A stretch of DNA of 64,000 bases. Source: a virus. Lineage: Duplodnaviria; Caudoviricetes. A program made the translations under genes and the position numbers. Below, one piece after another: positions 3,586 through 30,340 of this stretch (position 1 is its first letter; the number at the start of each line of letters is the position of its first letter). Location of the stretch: the IMG/VR virus record IMGVR_UViG_3300046171_000271. One strand, given 5' to 3'. Below the pieces are notes generated by a model. That model saw only the letters and a list, made by a program, of their open reading frames with translations. It was not told where the DNA came from and searched no databases.

Positions 3586-3908
3586 CATTATTACTAAAAA
3601 TGGACATTACACTTTCTAGTGAAGAAGCAGAACTTCTATTAAACTTGATGATCAATTCGCATATGGATGATAAAGATGATACTTTCCTTGAATATGATTG
3701 TTTTGGAGAGTTAATGAATAAACTTCTGAAGACATGTAGAAAATTTGATGAGGAGAAAGGTGACTGAAGAAGAAAGAAAATTTATCATAAATCTACAACT
3801 AAATAATATTTGTGAAATATTAGATGGGAAACTTAACCATCAACAGGTTATAGACTCTAAAGGTAAATGCTTCAAGAAGAATTATAATCGAATATCAGGA
3901 GAAAAGTA

Positions 3909-4170
3909 ATGCAGGCCTGGATCTACAGTAACGGAAACCAAGAATGTGAAAGAGCTGCTATGCTTTTAAAAAGTATCCATAATTGATTTTCATGAATATC
4001 TTTTAGATAAAGATTTTACAGAGTCTCAGTTCAAAGCAGAATTTGGTGAAAGTGCAGAATATCCACAAATTGCTATTGGTGTAAAGCATCGCGGTAGTCT
4101 CAAAGAACTTTGAATTATCTAAACAAAATAAATTACAAATGTTCATGTTGATACCAACACATTTGACTAA
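3909..4170 (+). CDS. Glutaredoxin-like protein (frameshifted as read)
   Basis: MQAWIYSNGNQECERAAMLL...FKAEFGESAEYPQIAIG; end approximate. Confidence 0.5.
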
Positions 4171-4173
4171 ATA
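4167..4173 (+). promoter_or_regulatory. T4-type late promoter-like box upstream of riboswitch locus
   Basis: CTAAATA, variant of TATAAATA. Confidence 0.4.
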
Positions 4174-4199
4174 GAATTGAAAGTGTATCCTACACTTGT

Positions 4200-4448
4200 C
4201 GTTCATCTCATGCTCAGTATCCTTACTGGCATTGACCCTTGCCTCATCATAATGACGCGTCACTCCTTACGGGTGGCACATGTCTTGTGAAAGGTTCTCT
4301 ACAGACGATCGAGTTGAAATTCCAATGCAGATCCCAATCTCGAGCGCTTCGGTCTAAGTATGAATCTGATAGGTTACCTTAGAGTCGAAAGTTGACGGGC
4401 GAATGTGAAGGGAGCATTCACATGAGACGCAAGTAAGTCGCGGAACGG
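4200..4448 (+). ncRNA. Glutamine riboswitch-like unit 1 with ~210-nt insert in P2 loop
   Basis: P1 CGTTC (4200) / GAACG (4443-4447); P2 CTCATG (4207) / CATGAG (4421); 3' core ACGCAAGTAAGTCGCGGAACG. Confidence 0.6.
4210..4425 (+). CDS. Small protein nested in riboswitch unit 1 (several indels as read)
   Basis: ATG in 5' P2 strand, TGA in 3' P2 strand; fragments HHNDAS, PYGWHMSCERF, DPNL, LIGYL, GECE in shifting frames. Confidence 0.4.
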
Positions 4449-4450
4449 AG

Positions 4451-4630
4451 CGTTCATCCCGTGTTTGAATTTTTACTTTACTCTGGTATTCATTGCACCG
4501 ATGCTAAGGATATGATCCGACGTATCGAAGCAAGTAACAGTGTAAGTAAAATTACTAAGGCTGAGGTTGTTGAGACCGTAAAGGAAGCAACACCTGAGTG
4601 CAAATGGGACGCAAACGACTGAAGGAACGG
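4451..4630 (+). ncRNA. Glutamine riboswitch (Downstream-peptide/glutamine-II type) unit 2 with ~145-nt insert
   Basis: 5' CGTTCATCCC and 3' GGGACGCAAACGACTGAAGGAACGG match the motif as I recall it; lies upstream of a DUF4278-type gene. Confidence 0.75.
4461..4622 (+). CDS. 53-aa protein nested in riboswitch unit 2
   Basis: Intact GTG..TGA ORF MFEFLLYSGIHCTDAKDMIRRIE...TVKEATPECKWDAND; last codons are the aptamer core. Confidence 0.7.
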   Translation: MFEFLLYSGIHCTDAKDMIRRIEASNSVSKITKAEVVETVKEATPECKWDAND

Positions 4631-4663
4631 ACCTAAAAATCCAACTACTTCAGGAGAAAACCA

Positions 4664-4828
4664 ATGAACACACTTACTATCATCAAAAAGCAAATCAACA
4701 AGGCAGCAGCTCTGCATGACGCACAGATTACTCACACCGCATATCGTGGTGTAAAGTCTGAAGTTCGTAAGGTAGGACAGGAGTCTCACGGCACCTTCTG
4801 CTACCGTGGTCGTATCTATACCAAGTAA
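4664..4828 (+). CDS. DUF4278-like small protein
   Basis: 54 aa with AYRGV and CYRGR motifs, SD AGGAG, directly downstream of riboswitch. Confidence 0.75.
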   Translation: MNTLTIIKKQINKAAALHDAQITHTAYRGVKSEVRKVGQESHGTFCYRGRIYTK

Positions 4829-4834
4829 GGAACT

Positions 4835-4930
4835 ATGGAAGCACTACAGTTAACTGGGCTCTTATCCTTAGGTTGTTTTGTTGCTATATCGGTATTTTAC
4901 GGTGAACTCGTCCTTCTTTACAAACACTGA
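4835..4930 (+). CDS. 31-aa hydrophobic peptide
   Basis: MEALQLTGLLSLGCFVAISVFYGELVLLYKH, SD-like AAGGA. Confidence 0.5.
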   Translation: MEALQLTGLLSLGCFVAISVFYGELVLLYKH

Positions 4931-4941
4931 GGGAAAAACAA

Positions 4942-5100
4942 ATGCTGAAGATCAAACTTTATTATGATCTTCCAGAATATAATCCAGAAGTTCACGATCC
5001 TGATAGGGTTTTCAGACTTCTAACATATCGTGGAGTAACTTATGCTAAGTGGATTAATTTAAAATCTCTAGGCATATCAAACTGGAAAGTATTTAAATGA
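4942..5100 (+). CDS. Second DUF4278-like small protein
   Basis: 52 aa with LTYRGVTY motif, SD GAGG. Confidence 0.6.
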   Translation: MLKIKLYYDLPEYNPEVHDPDRVFRLLTYRGVTYAKWINLKSLGISNWKVFK

Positions 5101-5124
5101 GGACCTTGACGGGTCCTCTTTTTT
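5099..5124 (+). terminator. Rho-independent terminator closing the riboswitch operon
   Basis: GAGGACC-TTGACG-GGTCCTC hairpin followed by T-run. Confidence 0.75.
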
Positions 5125-5137
5125 TGTCTATAATTAG

Positions 5138-5341: not shown

Positions 5342-5973
5342 TTAGTAAAACTTATCTCTGTTACTCCTGATGCAGAGAAGCACATGGCCTATTGTGCTCG
5401 CGTAAGTAATCCAAACAATCAGGAGAATGAAAAGTTTGCAGGTCTCCTCAGATATTGTATCAAGCATCAACATTGGAGCATCTTTGAGCAGGCAACAATG
5501 ACTCTAGAGTTGAATACTACAAGGGGAATTGCGGCCCAAGTGCTTCGGCATAGGTCTTTCACATATCAAGAATTTTCACAACGTTATGCTGATTCCTCCT
5601 TATTGGGTGAGACGATCCCGCTCCCCGAACTCCGCCGCCAAGACACCAAGAATCGTCAGAATTCTATTGATGATGTTGACCCGTTTGTTCGTCAAGAGTT
5701 CCAGATTAAAATTACGAAGCACTTTGAAGAAGGTATGAAACTTTATCAGCAGATGCTTGATGCTAACATCGCAAAGGAATGTGCCCGCTTTGTTCTCCCC
5801 CTTGCCGTCCCACCAGACTTTACATGACGGGTTCTAGTCGTCATGGATCCATTATATCGATTTGCGCTCTGCAAACGGCACACAGAAGGAGCACATGGAC
5901 ATTGCTAAGGATGCTAAGACAGTATCTTCTGTGAACAGTTCCCTGCTGTTGCAGAAGCCATTGAGTGGGTTAA
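5325..5973 (+). CDS. thyX: FAD-dependent thymidylate synthase (frameshifted at both ends as read)
   Basis: VKLISVTPDAEK, YCARVSN, HQHWSIFE, QVLRHRSFTYQEFSQRY, KECARFVLP; ends approximate. Confidence 0.93.
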
Positions 5974-5996
5974 TAAATATTCATCTAAGTTAATTT

Positions 5997-29680: not shown

Positions 29681-29754
29681 GCGCGAGTAGTCCAATGGCA
29701 GGAGACACCAAACTTAAAATTTGTACAGTGCGGGTTCGAGTCCCGCCTCGCGTA
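29681..29754 (+). tRNA. trnL: tRNA-Leu(UAA)
   Basis: Acceptor GCGCGAG/CTCGCGT, anticodon loop CTTAAAA, T-loop GGTTCGAGTCC. Confidence 0.85.
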
Positions 29755-30268: not shown

Positions 30269-30340
30269 GCCCCTGTAGCTCAATGGCAGAGCAACGCTTT
30301 TGTAAAGCGTAGGTTGTCCGTTCAAATCGGATCGGGGGCT
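30269..30340 (+). tRNA. trnT: tRNA-Thr(UGU)
   Basis: GCCCCTG acceptor, D-arm TAGCTCAATGGCAGAGC, ACGCT-TTTGTAA-AGCGT anticodon arm, GTTCAAATC T-loop. Confidence 0.92.

Follow-up and report, generated by a model that had tools for sequence, protein, structure and literature searches.

The 64,000-nucleotide stretch of viral DNA studied here (IMG/VR virus record IMGVR_UViG_3300046171_000271, hereafter the window) contains at positions 4200-4630 two consecutive units with the conserved letters of glutamine riboswitches, each of which encloses an open reading frame (ORF). Riboswitch aptamers are usually treated as compact non-coding domains upstream of the genes that they control. The locus raises the question of how the two units fold, whether the enclosed ORFs are genes, and how sensing and translation could share one RNA. 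The explanation that we consider best, and probable, is a nested glutamine riboswitch in the leader of an early cyanomyovirus transcript, both hairpins of which bear genes, with reciprocal control as its proposed function.

The array is related to glutamine riboswitches

An earlier reading of the letters, made without database searches (the sequence-only reading), had described the two units as tandem glutamine riboswitches in a phage. All letters that it gave for the two units were found in place:

Unit 1: CGTTC 4200-4204; TCTCATG 4206-4212; CATGAGA 4421-4427; CGCAAGTA 4428-4435; GGAACG 4442-4447
Unit 2: CGTTC 4451-4455; TCCC 4457-4460; GGGA 4606-4609; CGCAA 4610-4614; GGAACG 4624-4629

The viral setting was also borne out, as the record is that of a T4-like cyanophage: region 4100-4900 matches 434 phage records, nearly all of them Synechococcus or Prochlorococcus phages.

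For comparison, 73 IMG/VR loci were gathered via the protein of the second ORF (ORF2) alone, and pattern scans were made; the comparison covered 355 unique homologous arrays from viral (cyanomyovirus) contigs. The same composite architecture is present in these 355 arrays, far beyond chance, and in 75 of 75 loci found via the ORF2 protein alone and 79 of 79 complete loci found via the protein of the first ORF (ORF1) alone. In the place of unit 1 two forms were found, a canonical form of 38-73 nucleotides (nt) with a short, strongly covarying hairpin and a form of about 230 nt with an ORF, and the pattern scans turned up a short form of unit 2 as well. Each hairpin is either a short tetraloop stem or ORF-bearing, and all four combinations occur (hairpin 1/hairpin 2 among the 355 unique arrays: short/ORF 155, short/short 81, ORF/ORF 79, ORF/short 34). 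A pattern scan of 185,579 prokaryote genomes returned 36 matches, against about 35 expected by chance according to our own calculation, and those in cyanobacteria came from single-cell or metagenome assemblies, on contigs that were short or the size of a phage genome. The nested array appears to be essentially confined to phage DNA and absent from cellular genomes.

The sequence-only reading had proposed covariance-model searches as a check, and their outcome was divided. The relevant Rfam gathering cut-offs are 35 bits for RF01739 (type 1, glnA) and 33 bits for RF01704 (type 2, Downstream-peptide). The window itself gave no RF01739 match in Rfam scans at the gathering threshold and at E 10 (4100-4750), which returned only two tRNAs and noise, but short/short relatives exceeded the RF01739 cut-off (locus L080, 41.0 bits; locus L096, 38.6 bits), in each case by a single alignment that spans both units. 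The lack of a match in the window is to be expected from the inserts of about 210 and 150 nt that its hairpins hold. Individual units scored lower: unit 2 alone reached 30.9-34.5 bits with RF01739 in other loci, and short forms of unit 1 reached 22-29.5 bits with RF01704 and 22-27 bits with RF01739. The best RF01704 score was 31.1 bits, under its cut-off, and scans of the whole Syn9 and S-8S55 genomes with RF01739 and RF01704 found nothing relevant.

Kinship to glutamine riboswitches, which had been claimed from the letters, is also supported at the level of individual nucleotides. According to the crystal-structure paper, glutamine is contacted by C1:G40, by the pair G2:C39 with G18, and by the long-range pair 19:41. 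At the sequence level both cores have all of these, without variation among arrays, and 19:41 is the C:G pair of type 2. The G after GGAACG and the CGCA motif are invariant in all arrays. The strand 4428-4435 agrees with the RF01739 consensus CGGAAGUA at seven of eight positions and is invariant in all protein-selected loci. The two strands of the E-loop flank helix P3 (AAGUA of joining strand J2/3 at 4431-4435 and GAAG of J3/1 at 4621-4624), J3/1 being AAAG instead of GAAG in about 40% of relatives. Except for the hairpins and the inner loop, the core of the window equals that of loop-short relatives letter for letter. Each core is a candidate glutamine-binding site.

Covariation supports one nested fold of the two units

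The sequence-only reading let each unit close its own CGTTC/GAACG P1. This part of it was not supported: by covariation, the first CGTTC pairs with the last GAACG, the inner strands pair together, and the linkers of the two units form P3. The elements of this nested fold, all on the plus strand, are as follows:

4200-4204: outer P1, 5' strand CGUUC, pairing with 4625-4629 (RF01739 alignments, RNAalifold, locus L246)
4206-4212: outer P2, 5' strand UCUCAUG, 7 base pairs with 4421-4427; holds the ORF1 start (4210-4212)
4421-4427: outer P2, 3' strand CAUGAGA; holds the ORF1 stop TGA (4423-4425)
4428-4435: J2/3 of the outer core; CGC is the triple/linchpin strand, AAGUA one half of the E-loop
4436-4440: P3, 5' strand AGUCG, pairing with CGACU 4616-4620
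4442-4455: inner helix P1', consisting of GAACG 4443-4447, loop GAG 4448-4450 and CGUUC 4451-4455
4457-4462: inner P2', 5' strand UCCCGU, 6 base pairs including one G-U with 4604-4609; overlaps the ORF2 start GTG (4461-4463)
4604-4615: inner P2', 3' strand AUGGGA (4604-4609), then J2/3 of the inner core, CGCAAA (4610-4615)
4616-4624: P3, 3' strand CGACU (4616-4620), and J3/1 GAAG (4621-4624), the other half of the E-loop; the ORF2 stop TGA (4620-4622) straddles both
4625-4630: outer P1, 3' strand GAACG, and G4630, the expected linchpin partner of C4430

In the RF01739 alignment spanning both units, P1 is formed by the first CGUUC and the last GAACG, P2 is hairpin 1, J2/3 is CGCAAGUA, P3 is formed by the linker of unit 1 and that of unit 2, and J3/1 is GAAG. 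Because this above-threshold alignment spans both units, the E-loop halves AAGUA and GAAG are split between them. The outer P1, P3 and two inner hairpins were likewise obtained with RNAalifold on 49 short/short arrays and in single-sequence folds.

Covariation between the arrays points to the same pairs. The inner strands change together, being GGAACG/CGTTCA in 348 arrays and GCAACG/CGTTGA in 7, and the mixed state never occurs. In locus L246 the four strands read CGUUU, GCAACG, CGUUG and GAAACG, which gives U-A and C-G pairs when nested and two mismatches when paired side by side; the P1 covariation CGUUU/AAACG in this locus is a single event. The linkers pair in antiparallel orientation in more than 30 sequence types (for example AGUCG/CGACU, AGUUG/CAACU, AGUCA/UGACU and AGUAAC/GUUUACU), and a distal P3 pair alternates without exception between U-A (15 arrays) and A-U (12). 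Four different pair types are found at the first pair of P2, a stem that covaries across short hairpins as well as across ORF inserts. On the nested structure 95.0% of the pairing cells are filled, compared with 89.3% for shuffles and at most 57.9% with slid partners, and the covariation score of 0.154, against 0.062, was reached by 0 of 500 shuffles. The stems that close the ORF inserts exceed all 2000 shuffles in mean consecutive pairs (hairpin 1, 4.57 versus 3.39 shuffled; hairpin 2, 5.69 versus 4.49). Together, P1, P2 and P3 of a three-way junction are supported by covariation in these sequences.

The inner junction reads GGAACG-G, loop, CGUUC-A, hairpin 2, CGCA, and therefore holds all conserved core nucleotides in circularly permuted order, P3 being common to both cores. 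By covariation, the leader is predicted to fold as a single type-1 glutamine aptamer whose P3 harbors another core, of permuted appearance.

Two independent aptamers lying side by side, each closing its own P1 (4200-4204 with 4443-4447, and 4451-4455 with 4625-4629) and sensing separately, would account for the partial scores of unit 1 short forms with both models and of unit 2 alone with RF01739, and an alignment published in 2010 files such arrays as tandem. All these single-unit scores remain under the gathering cut-offs, however, whereas the spanning alignment is above. Two separate aptamers would also divide the E-loop halves between them, would mismatch both P1 helices in the seven arrays with the C..G junction and in L246, and would leave the covariation of linker with linker without a role. 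We regard two separately sensing aptamers as quite improbable. Side-by-side tandem pairing was dropped as a candidate fold in view of the junction and L246 covariation.

Locus L365 (plus strand) carries an array of three units, namely a short hairpin, an ORF1-type insert and a short hairpin. Its middle unit again carries CGCAAGUA, and nesting in this locus may therefore reach three levels.

The inserts in both hairpins are genes

Two ORFs are enclosed by the hairpins of the window:

4210-4425, plus strand: ORF1, phrog_6471 family, 65-68 amino acids in relatives, frame-broken in the window
4461-4622, plus strand: ORF2, 53 amino acids, phrog_504 (E 3.6e-22), last codons W-D-A-N-D-stop

As had been read from the letters, ORF2 is an intact frame of 53 codons, with a GTG start and the stop TGA at 4620-4622, and ORF1 is indel-ridden, running for 26 amino acids before the frame shifts. 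Unit 1 measures 248 nt in the window and 233 nt in relatives, and alignment with these relatives shows that about 15 scattered extra bases break the frame of ORF1. The frame of the thymidylate synthase gene thyX (window 5384-5993) also changes at least twice within about 200 nt (0 to 2 to 1), and the extra bases of ORF1 are missing from natural relatives sampled in RNA libraries; poor sequence quality is for these reasons as likely as a real ORF1 pseudogene. The GTG at 4461 is the sole GTG start among 238 arrays, and every metatranscriptome contig covering 4461 has an A there (ATG).

In relatives ORF1 is intact (about 66 codons); it is open in 102 of 113 unique arrays, and gp196 of phage Syn9 matches phrog_6471 (E 2.4e-38); the homologous genes of Syn9 are gp196, gp197 and gp198. 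ORF2 is open in 75 of 75 protein-selected loci and in all 238 unique arrays with an insert in hairpin 2, and its length changes only in steps of three. In both families variation is highest at third codon positions, and the median ratio of nonsynonymous to synonymous substitution rates (dN/dS) is 0.17 for ORF1 (phrog_6471) and 0.29 for ORF2 (phrog_504). The alignment across cyanomyoviruses, proposed as a check in the sequence-only reading, came out in favor of coding inserts: the frame is kept, and the closing stems covary. Judged by their sequences, both ORF families are under purifying selection and are real coding genes.

That the inserts might be non-coding expansions of the hairpins, with open frames that are incidental, is suggested by the tiny size of the ORFs (53-68 amino acids), by the lack of a Shine-Dalgarno site before ORF1 and by its closed frame in the window. 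Retention of the frame in 238/238 and 102/113 unique arrays, length changes in threes, the variable third positions and the low dN/dS values speak against it, as does the fold of the full-length leader, which when left unconstrained (4195-4635) is no more stable than that of shuffled sequence (z -1.28). Non-coding expansions are scarcely credible on this evidence.

Protein-only searches found the ORF1 and ORF2 families exclusively inside aptamer hairpins (75/75 and 79/79 complete loci). A first comparison of ORF1 and ORF2 profiles, based on narrower alignments, was not significant (P 0.07); with wide alignments hhalign matched the two families over 40 columns, from Cys to Cys (probability 83%, P 9e-6). 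The two families are probably paralogs. The AlphaFold2 model of ORF2 has three short helices (predicted local distance difference test score, pLDDT, 74) and a disordered C-terminal tail, and ORF1 and ORF2 may together constitute one family of two-cysteine helical small proteins.

Several features of individual inserts deserve mention. The ORF1 codons for C-E-R (window 4280-4300), TGTGAAAGG, show no synonymous variation in 24 distinct relatives while neighboring codons vary, and this frozen TGTGAAAGG stretch may reflect an extra constraint at the RNA level or an internal start context. Hairpin 2 of locus L341 (about 2105-2330) holds a different, longer insert with its own AGGAGG Shine-Dalgarno sequence in the loop; the encoded protein ends in ...KYPECFVENS, and the stem UCCUA/UAGGA is kept. 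In locus L061 (757-1197, minus strand) an HNH_3 homing-endonuclease gene (Pfam E 7e-11) lies antisense in hairpin 1, the stem again being kept, and a homing endonuclease is annotated in the corresponding region of phage Sf-CH5.

The same letters are read as RNA structure and as protein

The sequence-only reading had placed ATG 4210 and TGA 4423 in the two strands of the CTCATG/CATGAG stem. The letters confirm this. In nearly all arrays the start codon is found 3-5 nt inside the stem, and stop codons are placed in the 3' stem strands or in the conserved core. The ORF1 stop covaries with the 5' strand of P2, as UGA goes with UCUCA, UAA with UCUUA and UAG with UCC (UCUCA/UGAGA, UCUUA/UAAGA and UCC/(U)AGGA, respectively); in another clade ORF1 ends at the UAA of AAGUAAG. 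Genes of the ORF2 type terminate at U(G/A)A, a triplet shared between the end of P3 and J3/1; in 227 of 238 arrays its last base is 13 or 16 nt beyond the hairpin.

The last codons of ORF2, W-D-A-N-D-stop, are encoded by P2', J2/3' and the 3' strand of P3. In 53 distinct sequences the last five ORF2 codons show zero synonymous or third-position change, and they are frozen because the aptamer core is encoded there. The protein tail that this core encodes is the one predicted by AlphaFold2 to be disordered.

GGAG at 4447-4450, which includes the GAG loop of P1', lies 10 nt before the ORF2 start and is likely the Shine-Dalgarno site of ORF2. Where hairpin 2 contains an ORF, 163 of 238 arrays have the GAG loop, versus 2 of 117 where it does not (Fisher p 8e-39, a statistic that ignores phylogeny).

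These data bear on the view that the riboswitch is indeed nested and the ORFs are passive cargo, sitting in the loops as the only places that tolerate insertion and translated without relation to glutamine sensing. Such a view fits the antisense endonuclease gene in hairpin 1 of L061, the endonuclease annotated in Sf-CH5, the L341 insert that has a Shine-Dalgarno sequence inside its loop, and the fact that presence of the ORFs differs among near-identical relatives. It fits less well with two protein families, probably paralogous, that occur only inside these hairpins, with starts that lie 3-5 nt into the stem nearly everywhere, with an inner loop that forms GGAG when ORF2 is present, and with stop codons that reuse conserved core triplets. 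We judge passive cargo to be unlikely. Whatever the origin of the inserts, translation and folding are expected to be physically exclusive, because the starts, the Shine-Dalgarno loop and the stops are built into the stems and the core.

A putative promoter in front of the array and a proposed expression platform behind it

The array is flanked by elements expected of a leader and of the transcript that it precedes:

4163-4191, plus strand: sigma-70-like early promoter TTGACT-17 nt-TATCCT (consensus scan); start predicted 1-3 nt before P1
4648-4656, plus strand: partner CUUCAG (4648-4653) of an anti-Shine-Dalgarno helix with CUGAAG 4619-4624; overlaps GGAG (4653-4656) of ORF3
4664-4828, plus strand: ORF3, 54 amino acids with two YRG motifs, phrog_545 (E 4.7e-30)
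4835-4930, plus strand: hydrophobic ORF of 31 amino acids
4942-5100, plus strand: LTYRGVTY ORF of 52 amino acids, phrog_6192
5099-5128, plus strand: intrinsic-terminator-like hairpin with a T run

At the homologous site Syn9 has TTGACT-17-TATAAT, and in relatives the -10 box lies 7-8 nt before CGTTCA. Contigs of four marine metatranscriptome runs cover 4200-5100 and none cover 3900-4181. This fits the predicted transcript and places the locus in RNA libraries, but it is a weak indication, since contigs prove neither a start site nor a level of expression.

The anti-Shine-Dalgarno helix reads CUGAAG/CUUCAG in 78 arrays, CUAAAG/CUUUAG in 75 and a G-U combination in 63, and the A-C combination never occurs. 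This covarying helix would gate ORF3, a downstream gene of the YRG/DUF4278 kind. Pfam DUF4278 gave no match in the window, while the gene at the place of ORF3 in relatives scores 26.6-38.8 bits with DUF4278 (cut-off 25.3) and also matches phrog_545. ORF3 of the window appears to be a divergent relative of DUF4278 genes that Pfam does not recognize.

Retention of this platform is one of several observations that bear on whether ORF-bearing arrays still sense at all. They might have lost the sensor, their halves persisting as recombination repeats or as signals for RNA processing or stability: repeated conserved segments do flank units that are gained and lost, and no covariance model matches the window. 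No core nucleotide has been lost from the ORF-bearing arrays, however; stem covariation extends across the inserts, codons over the core lack synonymous change, and the anti-Shine-Dalgarno platform is retained. Because these retained constraints act on RNA structure and go beyond repeat identity, they oppose loss of the sensor, for which we see a very small chance.

A proposed mechanism of reciprocal control

Since the hairpin of each core holds a gene, nitrogen sensing and translation would have to compete for one RNA. We propose that the leader of an early cyanomyovirus transcript would fold as one type-1 glutamine riboswitch. In the absence of ligand, CUGAAG, consisting of the P3 end and GAAG of J3/1, would pair with CUUCAG and block the Shine-Dalgarno site of ORF3. 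Glutamine would fold the double core and so free the ribosome-binding site of ORF3, making the element an ON switch; this resembles the model for the Synechocystis gifB leader, in which glutamine binding melts a helix that blocks the ribosome-binding site. In line with the geometry, and with what the sequence-only reading had suggested, the folded sensor would bury the start sites of ORF1 and ORF2, and ribosomes on either of these ORFs would unfold P1, P2 and P3. ORF1 and ORF2 would consequently be favored in the unfolded state, at low glutamine, and ORF3 in the folded state. ORF2 translation could in addition bypass the sensor, because a ribosome terminating at 4620-4622 would open the anti-Shine-Dalgarno helix. 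Both the direction and the size of this translational coupling are what we infer from the arrangement of the elements.

Several points weigh against a nested sensor with reciprocal control. The covariation in P1 and P1' stems from few events (one C..G lineage and locus L246), and P3 contains two C-A mismatches in an abundant linker lineage (AGCCGAC). Because Rfam also aligns unit 2 alone, the units may adopt a side-by-side conformation as an alternative. The window lacks a covariance-model match, and the association between GGAG loop and ORF2 disregards phylogeny. ORF1 lacks a Shine-Dalgarno site, its start being about 10 nt from the predicted 5' end, and ribosomes can engage the nascent RNA at a time when the 3' stem strands have yet to be made. 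Finally, the antisense HNH gene in hairpin 1 of L061 shows that the loops accept cargo of other kinds, and a dedicated regulatory link is less well supported for that reason. With these points taken into account we still hold the nested, gene-bearing riboswitch to be the probable explanation.

More tentatively, it is possible that one sensor has two opposite outputs, such that glutamine shuts off the small proteins resident in the hairpins, by burying their start codons and the ORF2 Shine-Dalgarno site in P2, P2' and the P1' loop, and frees the IF17-like gene, and ribosomes on the resident genes reset the sensor. If true, it would be the first case of a riboswitch aptamer domain that doubles as a polycistronic mRNA, translated and regulated, and it would provide cyanophages with a nitrogen-status toggle between two sets of small effectors. 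Cyanophages may deploy these small proteins and the IF17-like peptides according to the nitrogen status of the host, and the uncharacterized small-protein family together with these peptides constitutes a lead on phage effectors.

Comparison with known systems

The outer core shares with type-1 glutamine riboswitches (RF01739, for instance in the Synechocystis gifB leader) the three-way junction, P1 of CGUUC/GAACG, a variable P2, J2/3 of CG(N)AAGUA, P3, and J3/1 of GAAG, as well as a predicted location in the 5' untranslated region of a gene that is DUF4278 in relatives and YRG/DUF4278-like in the window. Also common to both is a 3' aptamer segment that can pair near the ribosome-binding site, from which an ON switch would be expected. 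Here, in contrast, C occupies position 19 and G the partner position after P1, an arrangement shared with type 2; instead of ending in a simple hairpin, P3 leads into a second junction that resembles a core; and P2 and the inner hairpin can hold protein-coding genes. Other differences are that the window itself is invisible to the covariance model and that the nested array is so closely tied to phages.

With type-2 riboswitches (RF01704) the inner core has in common CGUUCA, a hairpin, CGCA, GGAACGG and C19:G41, and the lack of an E-loop. Unlike type 2, it has no H-type pseudoknot: GGAACG precedes CGUUC and both form a capped hairpin, i.e. the order is permuted. RF01704 scores are 22-31 bits here, under the cut-off of 33.

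Group I introns carry homing-endonuclease ORFs in peripheral loops. By analogy, they too are functional RNAs that tolerate a gene in a peripheral loop closed by long-range pairing, and one of the present arrays has an HNH gene. Group I introns are ribozymes, however, whereas the RNA described here is a putative ligand sensor; it usually carries sense-strand genes of a dedicated family of small proteins, and aptamer helices and core nucleotides supply their start, Shine-Dalgarno site and stop.

Tandem glnA RNAs were noted in marine metagenomes and read as a means of more digital regulation (Weinberg et al. 2010, PMC2864571), and genome papers published since then refer to glutamine riboswitches in T4-like cyanophages. 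The 2010 glnA alignment (PMC2864571) contains these same arrays, but only unit 2 belongs to the aligned region and unit 1 lies in the flanking sequence; no row bearing ORF2 was found in the part of the alignment that was searched. Neither PMC2864571 nor the searchable literature was found to describe the nested pairing, a P3 common to both cores or genes inside the hairpins (Ames and Breaker 2011 being outside this scope). A single nested double core with pseudo-symmetry is the better reading of the "tandem" phage glnA RNAs. They make up a widespread family, with hundreds of marine cyanophage variants, of what looks like a working glutamine sensor with ORFs as hairpins, in which the same nucleotides serve as stem, strand of the ligand pocket, Shine-Dalgarno site, codon and stop. 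As natural controls with and without each gene exist, the family offers a system for studying competition between translation and ligand-dependent folding of RNA.

Other RNA elements

In locus L104 the glutamine array is preceded, at a distance of about 85 nt, by a manA RNA (1351-1540; RF01745, 173 bits). The tRNA genes of the window are located at 29681-29754 (Rfam tRNA, 56.1 bits) and 30269-30340 (66.4 bits).

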